Of a DNA stretch of 53,508 nucleotides, positions 4,543 to 10,138 are shown one piece after another. The DNA comes from Escherichia coli (lineage in GTDB: Bacteria; Pseudomonadota; Gammaproteobacteria; Enterobacterales; Enterobacteriaceae). The number at the start of each line of letters is the position of its first letter. The first letter of the stretch is position 1. The position numbers were made by a program, and so were the translations under genes. The stretch is from the NCBI RefSeq assembly GCF_003334335.1, contig NZ_QOWQ01000033.1; one strand, 5' to 3'. Under the pieces are notes generated by a model. It saw only the letters and a program-made list of their open reading frames with translations, searched no databases and was not told the origin of the DNA.

Positions 4543-6876
4543 TTGGCCAACTCATCCTCACGATATTCCGTTCTGACTGCCGCCCATTGGGGGCCCATGC
4601 TGGTTGAAACCGACGGCGAAACCGTGTTTAGCTCGCGTGGCGCGTTAGCCACAGGAATGGAAAACTCCTTGCAGAGCGCGGTTCGCGACCAGGTTCACAG
4701 CAATACGCGGGTACGATTTCCAATGGTGCGAAAAGGCTTTCTTGCGTCACCGGAAAACCCGCAAGGCATTCGTGGGCAGGATGAATTTGTTCGCGTGAGT
4801 TGGGATGAGGCGCTGGATCTTATTCACCAACAACATAAACGCATTCGTGAGGCTTATGGTCCGGCATCGATTTTTGCTGGTTCCTACGGCTGGCGTTCAA
4901 ACGGCGTGCTGCATAAGGCCTCGACATTATTACAACGCTATATGGCGCTGGCAGGCGGTTATACCGGGCATCTGGGGGATTATTCGACCGGCGCGGCACA
5001 GGCGATCATGCCGTATGTCGTGGGTGGTAGTGAAGTTTATCAACAGCAGACCAGTTGGCCGCTGGTGCTGGAACATAGCGATGTCGTGGTGCTGTGGAGT
5101 GCTAACCCACTCAATACGCTGAAAATTGCGTGGAATGCATCCGATGAGCAGGGGCTTTCTTACTTTTCTGCACTGCGTGACAGCGGGAAAAAGCTGATCT
5201 GCATTGATCCAATGCGATCGGAAACCGTCGATTTCTTTGGCGATAAAATGGAGTGGGTGGCACCGCACATGGGCACCGATGTTGCGCTGATGCTGGGGAT
5301 CGCCCATACGCTGGTGGAAAATGGTTGGCACGACGAAGCGTTTCTGGCGCGTTGCACCACAGGTTATGCCGTCTTCGCCTCTTATTTGCTGGGCGAGAGT
5401 GACGGAATAGCGAAAACCGCCGAATGGGCAGCAGAGATTTGTGGTGTTGGCGCAGCGAAAATCCGCGAGCTGGCGGCTATTTTCCACCAAAATACCACCA
5501 TGCTGATGGCAGGCTGGGGAATGCAGCGCCAACAGTTTGGTGAGCAAAAACACTGGATGATCGTCACGCTGGCAGCAATGTTGGGGCAAATCGGCACACC
5601 CGGCGGCGGTTTTGGTCTTTCTTACCATTTTGCCAATGGTGGTAACCCCACGCGGCGTTCTGCGGTGCTCTCTTCCATGCAGGGCAGCTTGCCGGGTGGC
5701 TGCGATGCGGTGGATAAAATCCCTGTTGCCCGCATTGTTGAAGCACTGGAAAACCCTGGTGGCGCATATCAACACAACGGTATGAACCGACATTTCCCGG
5801 ATATTCGTTTTATCTGGTGGGCGGGCGGTGCCAACTTTACTCATCATCAGGATACCAATCGCCTGATCCGTGCCTGGCAAAAACCGGAGCTGGTGGTGAT
5901 CTCTGAATGCTTCTGGACGGCGGCGGCAAAACACGCGGATATCGTTCTGCCTGCGACTACCTCTTTTGAGCGTAATGATCTCACCATGACCGGTGATTAC
6001 AGTAATCAGCATCTGGTGCCGATGAAGCAAGTGGTGCCGCCACGCTATGAAGCGCGTAATGATTTTGATGTTTTTGCCGAGTTAAGTGAACGCTGGGAGA
6101 AGGGCGGTTATGCACGTTTTACGGAAGGAAAAAGTGAGCTGCAATGGCTGGAAACGTTTTATAACGTTGCCCGACAGCGCGGGGCAAGCCAGCAGGTTGA
6201 ATTGCCGCCATTTGCTGAGTTCTGGCAAGCCAACCAGTTAATTGAGATGCCGGAAAACCCGGACAGCGAGCGGTTTATTCGCTTCGCTGATTTTTGCCGC
6301 GATCCGCTGGCGCATCCGTTAAAAACCGCCAGCGGCAAGATTGAAATCTTCTCACAGCGTATTGCCGATTACGGTTACCCGGATTGCCCTGGGCATCCAA
6401 TGTGGCTGGAGCCGGACGAATGGCAGGGCAATGCCGAACCAGAACAGTTGCAGGTACTTTCTGCCCATCCGGCGCACCGCCTGCACAGCCAGCTGAATTA
6501 CAGTTCTCTGCGCGAATTGTACGCGGTGGCAAATCGTGAGCCTGTCACCATTCATCCTGACGATGCCCAGGAGCGCGGCATACAAGATGGCGATACTGTT
6601 CGGTTGTGGAACGCACGCGGGCAAATTCTTGCCGGAGCGGTCATTAGCGAGGGAATTAAACCTGGCGTGATTTGCATTCACGAAGGGGCATGGCCGGATC
6701 TGGATTTAACCGCTGACGGTATTTGTAAAAACGGCGCAGTGAACGTGCTGACCAAAGATCTCCCCAGCTCGCGGCTGGGGAATGGCTGTGCGGGTAATAC
6801 GGCGCTGGCATGGCTGGAAAAATACAACGGTCCGGAACTGACACTTACAGCGTTTGAACCACCGGCCAGCTCATAA
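4543..6876 (+). CDS. bisC: biotin sulfoxide reductase (molybdopterin oxidoreductase)
   Basis: 777 aa ORF of the molybdopterin DMSO-reductase family; the listed start is a TTG, so the true start is uncertain (in-frame ATGs at about 4597 and about 4657). Confidence 0.9.
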
Positions 6877-7285
6877 TCCATGTGGGTAGTTGGGTTTCAT
6901 CCTGCCATGCGCAATCGACAATGTGAAAACCCTGTGCCTGGTAAAAATTTATCGCCGGTTGATTTTTTTGATAAACCTCCAGCATCAGGTGGGGATGGCG
7001 CTGCTGCACATACTGCATCAGCGCCTTACCAATACCGCGCCTGACGGCCTTCGGTGCGACAAACATCGCTGCCAGAAATCGGCCTTCCATAATGCTGACA
7101 AAACCGAGAAGCTTACCGTCTTCTTCCCAGACCCAGTTTTGCGCGTTGGCAAGATAGGCATCCCGCACCAGCGGAATGCAGTCACGCCAGTAATTCGCTT
7201 TTATAAAGGGATGCCCCCAGGTTGTACTTTCCAGCCACAGTTCGAGGATCGCGGGGAGTTCTGAACGTTGCGCTTCCCGAATCAT
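6845..7285 (-). CDS. yiaC: GNAT family N-acetyltransferase YiaC
   Basis: 146 aa with GNAT acetyl-CoA motif (RRGIGKALM); 3' end overlaps the bisC 3' end convergently. Confidence 0.9.
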
Positions 7286-7845
7286 GGTTTATTTCCCGGA
7301 TAGCAACAGCAGCCAACCACATGATCATTCACCAGCCCACATGCCTGCATAAAGGAGTAACAGATTGTGGTGCCGACAAACTTAAAACCACGTTTTTTCA
7401 GTGCCTTAGATAGGGCGTCGGAGGCGGACGTAGATGTGGGAATTTCGCTCAACGTTGTGGCTTGTGTCACCTGTGGCTGATGATTTACAAACGACCAGAC
7501 AAAGTCGACAAACGGTTCGCCGTTCTGTTCCATTTGCAGGTACGCCCGCGCATTACCAATAATTGCCTGAATTTTCCCTCGATGGCGGATAATCCCGGCG
7601 TCCTGTACCAGTCTTTCGACATCCTCTTCCTGCATTGCTGCGACCTTCACCGGATCGAACTGATGAAAGCAGGCGCGATAGTTTTCGCGTTTTTTGAGGA
7701 CGGTGATCCACGATAATCCAGCCTGCTGCCCTTCAAGGCAGATCATTTCGAACAGTTTTTTACTGTCAGTTTCAGGCACGCCCCACTCATTATCATGGTA
7801 GGCAATATAAAGCGGGTCCTGACTCACCCAGCCGCAACGTTCCAT
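7282..7845 (-). CDS. tag: DNA-3-methyladenine glycosylase I (187 aa)
   Basis: MERCGWVSQDPLYIAYHDNEWGVPETDSKKLFE... with C-terminal zinc-site Cys/His; ATG at 7845; the longer ORF to 8082 is an upstream extension. Confidence 0.93.
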   Translation of the reverse strand: MERCGWVSQDPLYIAYHDNEWGVPETDSKKLFEMICLEGQQAGLSWITVLKKRENYRACFHQFDPVKVAAMQEEDVERLVQDAGIIRHRGKIQAIIGNARAYLQMEQNGEPFVDFVWSFVNHQPQVTQATTLSEIPTSTSASDALSKALKKRGFKFVGTTICYSFMQACGLVNDHVVGCCCYPGNKP

Positions 7846-8002
7846 ACTTTCCCTCGCTATGTACCCGATCGTAAAAATTTCAGCCGCTTTTCTTGACGCA
7901 TCGGTGAAAAAGTCAATATTTAATACAGGGCTACTATGCCCGATATCCTTCATACAATGACAATAATATTGCCGAATTCGGCTCTTCCCTGGAGTCGTGT
8001 TA

Positions 8003-8701
8003 ATGATCATAAAAAAAAGCGGTGGTCGCTGGCAGCTAAGCCTGCTGGCGAGCGTGGTAATCAGTGCCTTTTTTCTCAACACAGCTTACGCCTGGCAACA
8101 AGAATATATCGTTGATACGCAACCCGGACTTTCCACAGAGCGTTACACCTGGGATAGTGATCATCAACCTGATTACAACGATATTTTGTCGCAACGTATT
8201 CAAAGTAGCCAAAGGGCGCTGGGACTGGAAGTCAATCTGGCGGAAGAAACCCCTGTGGATGTGACCAGCAGTATGAGTATGGGCTGGAATTTTCCTTTAT
8301 ATGAACAGGTTACAACCGGCCCGGTCGCGGCATTACATTACGATGGCACAACCACCTCGATGTATAACGAGTTTGGCGACAGTACTACCACGCTGACCGA
8401 TCCGTTATGGCATGCCAGCGTGAGTACCTTAGGCTGGCGTGTTGACTCCCGGCTTGGCGATCTCCGACCCTGGGCGCAAATCAGCTATAACCAGCAATTT
8501 GGCGAGAATATCTGGAAGGCGCAATCAGGCCTGAGCCGGATGACGGCGACAAACCAGAACGGCAACTGGCTGGATGTCACCGTAGGCGCTGATATGTTGC
8601 TCAATCAAAATATTGCCGCCTATGCCGCGCTAACTCAGGCAGAAAATACCACTAATAATAGCGACTATCTGTATACGATGGGGGTTAGCGCCAGATTTTA
8701 A
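8003..8701 (+). CDS. yhjY: small outer-membrane beta-barrel protein with autotransporter-like translocator domain (232 aa)
   Basis: N-terminal signal peptide (LLASVVISAFFLNTAYA), C-terminal aromatic residue (…GVSARF) typical of OMP barrels; ATG at 8003. Confidence 0.85.
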   Translation: MIIKKSGGRWQLSLLASVVISAFFLNTAYAWQQEYIVDTQPGLSTERYTWDSDHQPDYNDILSQRIQSSQRALGLEVNLAEETPVDVTSSMSMGWNFPLYEQVTTGPVAALHYDGTTTSMYNEFGDSTTTLTDPLWHASVSTLGWRVDSRLGDLRPWAQISYNQQFGENIWKAQSGLSRMTATNQNGNWLDVTVGADMLLNQNIAAYAALTQAENTTNNSDYLYTMGVSARF

Positions 8702-8815
8702 CGTAACAGTCACAATTGAAACCATTAAATAACAATAGTTGTGGCGATAGTGGGTGCTAACTTACCAAATAATAAATTTGGTGAATAATTGTCGCGTCAT
8801 TCATTCCTGAACTAA

Positions 8816-8846
8816 GGCATTTCATTCCGTTCTGATGGCATTTCAT
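8816..8846 (+). promoter_or_regulatory. YpdB (LytTR response regulator) binding site: direct repeat GGCATTTCAT-N11-GGCATTTCAT
   Basis: Two perfect 10-bp direct repeats 11 bp apart, about 85 bp upstream of the yhjX ATG; matches the published YpdB motif as I recall it. Confidence 0.75.
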
Positions 8847-8929
8847 GCCGTTTTTCCCCAGGCATAAAGTGCACTTCGTTATGGTTGTCGGCAGAGATTT
8901 TTCCTTTTTATTACTGCAGGAATACTGCC

Positions 8930-10138
8930 ATGACACCTTCAAATTATCAGCGTACCCGCTGGCTGACACTCATCGGTACTATCATTACCCAGTTTGCGCT
9001 GGGGTCGGTTTATACCTGGAGCCTGTTTAATGGCGCGCTTTCCGCCAAGCTGGATGCGCCGGTAAGCCAGGTCGCTTTCTCTTTCGGCTTGTTAAGTCTG
9101 GGGCTGGCAATTTCGTCTTCTGTTGCGGGCAAATTACAGGAACGTTTTGGCGTTAAACGCGTCACCATGGCTTCCGGCATTTTGCTGGGATTAGGCTTCT
9201 TCCTGACAGCGCATTCTGACAACCTGATGATGCTGTGGTTAAGCGCCGGTGTGCTGGTGGGACTGGCAGATGGCGCGGGTTATCTGCTGACGCTCTCTAA
9301 CTGTGTGAAGTGGTTCCCGGAGCGTAAAGGTCTGATCTCCGCGTTCGCTATCGGTTCTTATGGTCTGGGTAGCCTGGGTTTCAAATTTATCGACACGCAG
9401 CTGCTGGAAACGGTCGGTCTGGAAAAAACCTTTGTGATTTGGGGAGCGATTGCGCTGTTGATGATTGTTTTCGGCGCAACGTTAATGAAAGACGCACCAA
9501 AACAGGAAGTGAAAACCAGCAATGGTGTGGTGGAGAAAGATTACACGCTGGCAGAGTCGATGCGTAAACCGCAGTACTGGATGTTAGCGGTAATGTTCCT
9601 GACCGCCTGCATGAGCGGCCTGTACGTGATTGGGGTAGCGAAAGATATCGCCCAAAGTCTGGCACACCTTGATGTGGTTTCCGCAGCCAATGCAGTCACT
9701 GTTATTTCCATCGCCAACCTTTCAGGTCGTCTGGTGCTGGGTATTCTGTCTGACAAAATCGCCCGTATCCGTGTTATTACCATTGGTCAGGTGATATCGC
9801 TGGTGGGTATGGCGGCCCTGCTGTTTGCACCATTGAATGCAGTGACGTTCTTTGCAGCGATTGCCTGCGTGGCATTTAACTTTGGCGGCACTATTACCGT
9901 CTTTCCGTCACTGGTCAGTGAGTTCTTTGGCCTCAATAACCTGGCGAAAAACTACGGTGTGATTTATCTCGGTTTCGGTATCGGTAGCATTTGTGGTTCG
10001 ATTATCGCCTCACTGTTTGGCGGCTTCTATGTGACCTTCTACGTGATTTTCGCCCTGCTGATTCTGTCATTGGCGCTTTCTACGACGATTCGTCAGCCAG
10101 AGCAGAAAATGTTGCGTGAGGCGCATGGCTCCCTTTAA
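8930..10138 (+). CDS. yhjX: MFS transporter YhjX (oxalate/formate antiporter-like; pyruvate-responsive)
   Basis: 12-TM MFS profile starting MTPSNYQRTRWLTLIGTIITQFALGSVYTWSLFN; ATG at 8930. Confidence 0.92.
   Translation: MTPSNYQRTRWLTLIGTIITQFALGSVYTWSLFNGALSAKLDAPVSQVAFSFGLLSLGLAISSSVAGKLQERFGVKRVTMASGILLGLGFFLTAHSDNLMMLWLSAGVLVGLADGAGYLLTLSNCVKWFPERKGLISAFAIGSYGLGSLGFKFIDTQLLETVGLEKTFVIWGAIALLMIVFGATLMKDAPKQEVKTSNGVVEKDYTLAESMRKPQYWMLAVMFLTACMSGLYVIGVAKDIAQSLAHLDVVSAANAVTVISIANLSGRLVLGILSDKIARIRVITIGQVISLVGMAALLFAPLNAVTFFAAIACVAFNFGGTITVFPSLVSEFFGLNNLAKNYGVIYLGFGIGSICGSIIASLFGGFYVTFYVIFALLILSLALSTTIRQPEQKMLREAHGSL

Follow-up and report, generated by a model that had tools for sequence, protein, structure and literature searches.

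The yhjY locus

We analyzed a window of Escherichia coli DNA (the whole stretch of 53,508 nucleotides, from contig NZ_QOWQ01000033.1 of RefSeq assembly GCF_003334335.1) for the nature and origin of yhjY, a gene that in E. coli lies divergent from tag and upstream of yhjX (Table 1). The gene is nearly universal in the species, being present in 5423 of 5426 complete genomes under the RefSeq name yhjY and on the chromosome every time, and the product in the window is 99% identical to an E. coli cluster (P0002) named "autotransporter domain-containing protein." We propose that yhjY arose by deletion within a gene for a much larger autotransporter and that what is left has been retained, under selection, as a small outer membrane (OM) stub. 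We put the probability of this overall explanation, the best that we can offer, at about 0.8.

An initial annotation had described a product of 232 amino acids (aa) with a signal peptide and a terminal Phe that marks a barrel, and this description stands. The N terminus, by inspection, opens with the basic stretch MIIKKSGGRWQ, continues with hydrophobic LSLLASVVISAFFL, and ends in NTAYA, an A-x-A cleavage motif followed directly by WQQ. Conservation is at least 90% at both A28 and A30, and W31, right after them, is invariant. The same A-x-A/W junction is found in full-length relatives, with whose signal peptides this segment of YhjY aligns. At the other end, YLYTMGVSARF is a typical OM β-signal, in which Y224, G227, V228, S229, A230, and F232 are invariant (alignment A2).

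Table 1. Features of yhjY and its surroundings, in window coordinates
Feature	Position	Strand	Basis or remark
yhjY coding sequence, 232 codons plus TAA	8003..8701	+	Open reading frame list and sequence; ATG 8003, TAA 8699-8701
Signal peptide, residues 1-30, predicted cut after A-Y-A	8003..8092	+	Sequence inspection
RybB 5' seed complement, codons 3-8	8011..8026	+	Predicted pairing
GDSL-esterase passenger relic, residues 31-69 (former strand 1, block I loop, helix 1)	8093..8209	+	Relic profile and BLASTP
Variable junction segment, residues 70-87, with deletion scar and short predicted strand 74-79	8210..8263	+	
Last ~7 autotransporter barrel strands, residues 88-232, including C-terminal β-signal	8264..8698	+	PF03797, TIGR01414
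tag (3-methyladenine DNA glycosylase I)	7282..7845	-	Divergent neighbor, synteny anchor; tblastn with window Tag protein
tag-yhjY intergenic region, presumed promoter-bearing	7846..8002	.	Between divergent genes

Partial barrel and degenerate esterase in YhjY

Searches of YhjY against Pfam and NCBIfam matched autotransporter models only; no passenger domain, no Lipase_GDSL domain, and no family of 8-stranded outer membrane proteins (OMPs) of the OmpA/OmpX/OmpW/PagP type was matched. Both matches cover part of their model. PF03797 (E 1e-11) aligned residues 88 to 209 with model positions 119 to 253 of 255, and TIGR01414 (21.4 bits, cut-off 16) aligned residues 88 to 232 with positions 285 to 432 of 432, leaving the first ~46% of the barrel model without a counterpart in YhjY. 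In contrast, the full-length relative P0133, described below, matched PF03797 from position 2 to 254. The autotransporter β-domain that was called initially was recovered by this profile search, as the C-terminal part of the models only. The call also noted that there is no room for a passenger before the barrel, and indeed 57 residues separate the signal peptide from the Pfam match. What has to be amended is the description of the protein as only a β-domain: about 7 of the 12 strands are present, and a relic of the passenger is recognizable at residues 31 to 69.

A classical (type Va) autotransporter can be defined by five features. YhjY has a Sec signal peptide, by inspection, and an aromatic-ended C-terminal β-signal. 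It lacks the other three: an exported passenger domain, of which ~39 former residues are left; a pore-filling helical linker, residues 349 to 395 of P0133 having no counterpart and the BLASTP alignment jumping from 69 to 486; and a complete 12-stranded β-domain, the PF03797 and TIGR01414 matches being partial. Every GDSL-esterase feature tested is missing as well. Where the full-length proteins have FGDSLSD, the block I nucleophile motif, E. coli YhjY has VDTQPGL in the alignment, and the sequence bearing GDSL/SGNH blocks II, III, and V (Gly, Asn, and Asp-x-x-His), which belongs to a domain spanning residues 35 to 348 in P0133, has been deleted. Given the deletion and the degeneration of the block I nucleophile, YhjY cannot be a lipase or act as an autotransporter, and to judge from its sequence it should be described as an autotransporter-derived small OMP that is neither of the two.

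The short protein is named "lipase," "Lipase 1," or "putative lipase" in many database records, among them those from Cronobacter, Klebsiella quasipneumoniae, E. fergusonii, Shigella, and EDL933. With the catalytic machinery gone, these names are wrong; with three of five defining features failing, the name "autotransporter" is misleading.

Probable origin of yhjY by internal deletion

When 1.84 billion representative proteins were searched with a profile of 34 orthologues, only 123 relatives came up. Besides short forms and fragments, these were proteins of 658 to 713 aa, whose C termini match profile positions ~90 to 234 and three of which match at the N terminus too. The nearest long relatives of YhjY are GDSL-esterase autotransporters of 658 to 665 aa. 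In the best of them, P0133 (665 aa; the named cluster members are from Winslowiella), Lipase_GDSL occupies residues 35 to 348 and Autotransporter residues 396 to 643. BLASTP aligned YhjY with this protein in two collinear matches, one joining residues 57 to 232 to 486 to 665 (39% identity, E 1e-40) and the other joining residues 1 to 66 to 1 to 69 (35% identity, E 1e-6). To exclude a signal-peptide artefact in the second match, a profile was built from the relic only (mature residues 31 to 69, 81 species). This profile matches full-length esterase autotransporters at residues ~32 to 70, directly after their signal peptides and always there, the better matches scoring 30 to 39 bits (E 1e-8 to 1e-5 if 1e6 sequences are assumed). 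The relic-profile and BLASTP matches together indicate that AWQQEYIVDTQPGLSTE--RYTWDSDHQPDYNDILSQRI of YhjY corresponds to AWDQLYVFGDSLSDSGNNGRYTWDGSTHPLYDDILAEKI of the full-length proteins. By these alignments, the relic takes in the opening part of the GDSL fold: strand 1, the block I loop, and helix 1.

The chromosomal setting agrees with the protein comparison. A full-length gene is divergent from tag in Winslowiella (yiaD-tag, then the 665-aa gene, a 215-aa gene, and dnaT-dnaC), in Duffyella too, and in Serratia liquefaciens (yiaD-yiaC-tag, then a 662-aa gene). The short gene occupies the same tag-divergent slot in all 80 of the Enterobacteriaceae species loci fetched (tblastn with Tag), the order in Klebsiella and Cronobacter being bisC-yiaC-tag, yhjY, yhjX, and eptB. 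A full-length homologue in Pantoea ananatis is located elsewhere and is a paralogue. The locus search, made with the narrower alignment A4, returned Enterobacteriaceae loci only, and for other Enterobacterales families the distribution given here is based on a few look-ups. The presence of full-length genes in the same slot argues that yhjY arose in place, by an in-frame internal deletion. Passenger-coding sequence, which the initial annotation had suggested looking for upstream of yhjY in other genomes, lies instead inside the orthologous gene, and this points to an internal deletion, not a 5' truncation. We therefore consider it very probable, on sequence grounds, that yhjY originated by internal deletion in a GDSL-esterase autotransporter gene. 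The early suggestion of a remnant of a larger lipase/esterase autotransporter is thus borne out by the two-ended match to P0133 and by the full-length genes at the tag slot. The observation named with it as counterevidence, orthologues of identical length everywhere, holds within the Enterobacteriaceae but fails once Erwiniaceae and Serratia are included. A literature search for a paper describing such an origin of yhjY found none, and searches on passenger-less autotransporters and on b3548, which we take to be the b-number of yhjY, returned nothing relevant.

The deletion junction falls somewhere between YhjY residues 66 and 88. The full-length Winslowiella gene encodes YDDI twice, at codons 61 to 64 in the passenger and at codons 487 to 490 in barrel strand 5; both copies have the identical 8-nucleotide core GACGATAT (positions 6181-6192 and 7459-7470 of the fetched locus). 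This repeat looks like a deletion hotspot, and the barrel copy is also found in Pseudomonas aeruginosa EstA. Slippage between the two YDDI-coding repeats was considered as the junction and rejected, since in YhjY DILAERI continues past the motif. This heptapeptide is identical at 6 of 7 positions to the N-terminal DILAEKI and at 3 of 7 to the barrel DISRRII, a resemblance that probably puts the junction downstream of the repeat.

In our reading, the ancestor was a classical (type Va) GDSL-esterase autotransporter whose gene adjoined tag in an ancestor of the enteric bacteria. An in-frame internal deletion of about 425 to 430 codons would have fused the signal peptide and the first ~39 passenger residues, up to ...DILAE(K/R)I, to the final third of the protein, which starts in the loop preceding barrel strand 6 and ends with the C-terminal Phe. 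Lost with the deleted codons would be the remainder of the esterase fold, with the region of the other SGNH catalytic blocks, as well as the pore-filling linker helix and the first 4 to 5 barrel strands. The block I nucleophile position would then have degenerated.

The tag-adjacent esterase autotransporters of Serratia, Winslowiella, and Duffyella (~662 to 665 aa; Lipase_GDSL plus Autotransporter) share their slot with yhjY. YhjY is homologous to them over its signal peptide and first ~39 mature residues, and its last ~150 to 175 residues are 36 to 46% identical to theirs (BLAST). It is without ~430 of their residues (nearly the whole esterase domain, the linker helix, and strands 1 to 4 or 5) and without ~7 residues of a loop, ...KSTQTSFTR..., that is conserved in the full-length proteins compared, and their block I serine position is no longer conserved in it. 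EstA of P. aeruginosa (PDB 3KVN) belongs to the same family as the ancestor: P0133 matches it with E 1e-34, the YhjY-family profile matches its residues 455 to 605 with E 0.002, and it carries a DYDD(L/I) motif at the corresponding barrel position. In AaaA of P. aeruginosa (PDB 9OQA), which we take to be an aminopeptidase autotransporter and which is full length, only the C-terminal two-thirds of the barrel aligns. A phmmer search with YhjY alone gave no meaningful match among PDB sequences; AaaA and EstA come up with the family profile only. The same family includes ApeE of Salmonella and EstA of S. liquefaciens (PMC6555100). Proteins of the EstA/ApeE type are complete esterases, active and exposed on the surface, that have a pore helix and a 12-stranded barrel, whereas YhjY is without the catalytic apparatus. 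Since Salmonella has yhjY at its tag locus, ApeE would be a paralogue encoded elsewhere. In one database paper, the nearest characterized relative of YhjY is Photorhabdus Lipase 1 (PMC6637259).

Conservation and selection

The open reading frame is intact, at 226 to 237 aa, and adjoins tag in all 81 Enterobacteriaceae species. The ratio of nonsynonymous to synonymous divergence (dN/dS; Nei-Gojobori, 380 species pairs with dS of 0.15 to 1.2) was 0.17 for the whole gene. It was lowest in the barrel part (0.11; residues 91 to 232), followed by the passenger relic (0.145; 31 to 69), the junction (0.30; 70 to 90), and the signal peptide (0.52; 1 to 30), which is the fastest-evolving part at the protein level. 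Among mature segments, the junction is the most variable (1.76 bits of entropy); it is shortened in Cronobacter and different in Pantoea. Within the relic, W31, Q33, E34, Y35, R47, Y48, W50, D51, P56, Y58, D60, L62, and R65 are invariant in the 81 species, and positions 38 to 45, the former GDSL motif, are highly variable, more so than any others there. A relic that is invariant while its former catalytic motif varies must be conserved for a reason other than esterase activity. Given this purifying selection, "remnant" should not be read as "pseudogene"; in our judgment YhjY is quite likely a retained protein under selection across the Enterobacteriaceae.

The small form in Pantoea

A similar small form is found in Pantoea, in the same tag-adjoining slot, as 66 clusters of 211 to 258 aa, most of them 227 to 242 aa. 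Like YhjY, it has a signal peptide, a relic that runs to ...YNxILAEKI (the same left boundary), and the last ~7 strands, and it is missing the same segment of loop L5. Its identity to E. coli YhjY is only ~30%, compared with 44% to the Winslowiella barrel. The Pantoea relic falls ~10 residues short of that of YhjY and is without RYTWD, and the Pantoea form has two features that YhjY has not: an extra segment of ~20 to 25 residues (...LWDAALNAPA...) and a conserved cysteine pair (C....QC) in a shortened loop L4, perhaps a disulfide. The source of the extra segment in the full-length protein could not be traced, the best profile matches being at most 6.6 bits.

Do the two small forms go back to one deletion or to two? 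In a neighbor-joining tree of 142 barrel columns, all small forms fall together, on long branches and with a bootstrap of 49%. The Tag protein (44 to 58% support) and both flanks place the Pantoea locus, which is of the Erwiniaceae type on both sides, among Erwiniaceae that have the full-length gene. Once deleted, a passenger cannot be regained, so two independent deletions would follow from vertical descent. We see roughly even odds between one event and two. That the same architecture was reached twice, in the ancestor of the Enterobacteriaceae and in the Erwiniaceae line leading to Pantoea, and was fixed and conserved in both, strikes us as possible but doubtful. If it were true, the signal peptide, the first GDSL strand and helix, and the last ~7 strands would make up a self-sufficient, selectable OM folding unit; a 12-stranded barrel would have been remodeled, in a natural and datable case, to a smaller or multi-chain barrel; and the invariant N-terminal relic would have a new role.

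Downstream of the autotransporter or small form, Erwiniaceae have a gene for a conserved protein of 215 to 227 aa without a Pfam match, and dnaT-dnaC come next. In the fetched loci this gene lies at 8114-8761 (L001), 6788-7471 (L003), and 7101-7760 (L008). The Pantoea small form in L003 is at 6001-6711, and the proteins are P0271 and P0298-P0359.

Expression and RybB

Several publications bear on the expression of yhjY. It depends on RpoS, 55-fold in O157:H7 strain EDL933 (PMC2907692), is induced on the transition to stationary phase (PMC2241611), and was reported in a TRIC-seq preprint as a new contact of the small RNA RybB among OMP mRNAs (bioRxiv 10.1101/2025.09.11.675593). In the window, AAAAAAAAGCGGTGGT, early in the coding sequence (Table 1), is nearly perfectly complementary to RybB-16, GCCACUGCUUUUCUUU (seed sequence from PMC4911921), and we predict that the two pair. 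The duplex energy is -17.5 kcal/mol, compared with -7.9 ± 1.9 kcal/mol for shuffled seeds, and 65 of 81 orthologues reach -12 kcal/mol or lower. The 5' end of yhjY has diverged less at synonymous sites (0.62) than the barrel part (1.17), which is in keeping with a constraint on the RNA. The cell thus seems to treat yhjY as an OMP gene, one whose expression would rise in stationary phase via RpoS and would be repressed, like that of other OMPs, by the sigma-E small RNA RybB.

A synonymous change in yhjY, S21S, arose identically in 5 of 12 rifampicin-resistant evolution lines, with no measurable gain in fitness (bioRxiv 10.1101/2023.01.13.524028). Codon 21 is at about 8063-8065 of the window. 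This recurrence could reflect a mutational hotspot, a preexisting variant, or an effect at the RNA level.

Fold of YhjY and rival explanations

AlphaFold2, run on the 34 close orthologues, gave a predicted local distance difference test score (pLDDT) of 36.7; a diverse 82-row alignment raised the mean to 66.5, with a predicted template modeling score (pTM) of 0.54. The latter model has strands at 88-100, 103-114, 138-149, 154-166, 188-199, 205-214, and 222-231 with a core pLDDT of 88 to 91, a helix at 58-68, and a short strand at 74-79; residues 25 to 50 are without confident structure. An alternating hydrophobic pattern is kept at positions 75, 77, and 79, which mildly favors an eighth strand. 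Against the PDB, Foldseek gave query-normalized template modeling (TM) scores of at most 0.40. The model reads as a sheet whose strands and pairing would be inherited from the autotransporter barrel, with several candidates for how it closes: it could form a monomeric barrel, with 8 strands or perhaps 10, form an oligomer, or pair with another protein. A monomeric closed barrel of 8 strands falls somewhat short of an even chance in our estimate. Proteins of the PagP type are small 8-stranded OMPs with an N-terminal helix. They resemble YhjY in mature size (~200 aa), an even predicted strand count, a short helix before the first strand, and an aromatic β-signal, but the sequences are unrelated and YhjY matches 8-stranded barrels only weakly in structure, so the resemblance is architectural only.

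The most likely model, as we see it, is that YhjY is exported by Sec and that the β-barrel assembly machinery (BAM) recognizes its intact C-terminal β-signal. It would be inserted in the OM as a small β-sheet protein, with 7 inherited strands and one short new one, and the conserved N-terminal relic with its short helix 58-68 would form a soluble or plug-like extension.

Several points weigh against our proposal of a deletion-born, retained OM protein. The exact junction cannot be mapped. The fold is unsettled at the AlphaFold2 scores given above; models of orthologues in the AlphaFold database agree with ours only at TM 0.55 to 0.63, and the putative closing strand 74-79 lies in the least conserved segment, the one shortened in Cronobacter. 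YhjY is in a curated set of E. coli OMPs on predictive grounds only, and an earlier homology model of it was called a "deformed or broken" barrel (PMC7383365). No proteomic evidence for YhjY was found in the searchable literature. Finally, truncated products of 146 to 176 aa form large clusters that include Shigella flexneri (P0064, P0082, and P0083), and the insertion sequence IS1 interrupts yhjY in one pig isolate of E. coli (NZ_CP053720.1). In such lineages the gene is dispensable.

How the sheet closes bears on a first rival, in which YhjY makes an incomplete barrel and needs association to close it, either as a homo-oligomer (e.g., 2 × 8 strands) or with the edges of another OMP. An odd number of inherited strands (seven) would suit this idea, as would orthologue models that do not converge, a would-be closing strand that is short, variable, and partly missing in Cronobacter, and an AlphaFold2 model whose best superpositions are on about two-thirds of 12-stranded barrels, the fit to 8-stranded barrels being poor. 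However, the alignment given to AlphaFold2 held autotransporter barrels, and the model may merely reproduce their curvature. There is also no conserved partner gene beside yhjY, the right-hand neighbors differing among Enterobacteriaceae, Serratia, and Erwiniaceae, and we know of no multi-chain barrel made from 8-strand protomers. Closure by association seems to us rather unlikely. The relic, in turn, invites the thought that YhjY is a minimal autotransporter displaying ~40 residues on the surface by the hairpin route. The relic is very strongly conserved, helix 58-68 followed by strands resembles the order of linker helix and barrel, and the N terminus of a seven-strand sheet would, by autotransporter topology, face outward. 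Yet the true linker helix and strands 1 to 5 are gone, the lumen of a barrel of 7 to 8 strands is too narrow for a helix, and the Pantoea form does without most of the relic, including RYTWD. We give such surface display very little credence.

Two further accounts would deny either the selection or the deletion. That yhjY is a nonfunctional leftover, a pseudogene staying open by chance, is very improbable. It is true that the deletion destroyed both known activities, esterase and passenger export, that a literature search found no phenotype for yhjY, and that the gene is disrupted in Shigella and in the strain with IS1. It also evolves faster than its neighbor tag: identity to E. coli is 73% for yhjY versus 83 to 86% for tag in Salmonella and 51% versus 77 to 78% in Buttiauxella. 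But an intact frame of near-constant length in every species sampled across the family, a dN/dS of 0.17, and a relic and strands far more conserved than the signal peptide and junction largely refute the idea; the Pantoea form, moreover, keeps a near-constant length, about 211 to 258 aa, across the genus even at 43% identity, and expression of yhjY is regulated. The remaining account inverts the history: YhjY would be the ancestral stand-alone small barrel, and long esterase autotransporters would have arisen from a barrel of its type by fusion. The initial annotation had offered a minimal stand-alone barrel as one option, and the Enterobacteriaceae orthologues are indeed all equally short. 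Two features of YhjY, however, already contradict a form that never had a passenger: the N-terminal relic, a piece of the GDSL fold with no sense outside a whole domain, and the match to only half of the barrel model. Two other families have full-length forms at this locus, the distant paralogues are also full length, and it is the small forms that have long branches and the full-length forms short ones, so that we find an ancestral small barrel scarcely credible.

If, as we propose, yhjY is a selected product of deletion, it would serve as a natural experiment in which the ancestor is known and ~7 of 12 strands and a 39-residue relic have been kept under selection across a whole family. The way YhjY folds is relevant to the handling of incomplete barrels by BAM and to the evolution of strand number, and the invariant relic, WQQEY...RYTWD...P.Y.DIL.ERI, points to a function independent of the esterase fold. 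The gene itself has long been known and is dispensable in some lineages, and we regard the finding as of moderate, specialist interest.

Flanking sequence and database records

Promoter and terminator scans and an Rfam search of 7700-9000 gave nothing above chance, and no Rfam family matched. One sigma-70-like match, at 7893-7920 (+), lies in the tag-yhjY intergenic region, where the number of matches is not above that expected from shuffled sequence.

Some database records bear names at odds with their content. A record titled Chryseobacterium sp. 18061 contains a typical Enterobacteriaceae tag-yhjY locus, near-identical to that of a Citrobacter record from the same study, and two small forms of the Pantoea type (P0337 and P0346) were deposited as Enterobacter. 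These are probably mislabeled or contaminated assemblies. In the window itself, an open reading frame of 266 aa with a GTG start, listed at 7282-8082 (-) and overlapping the start of yhjY, is an upstream extension of tag; the real tag product has 187 aa, begins MERCGW..., and starts at 7845.

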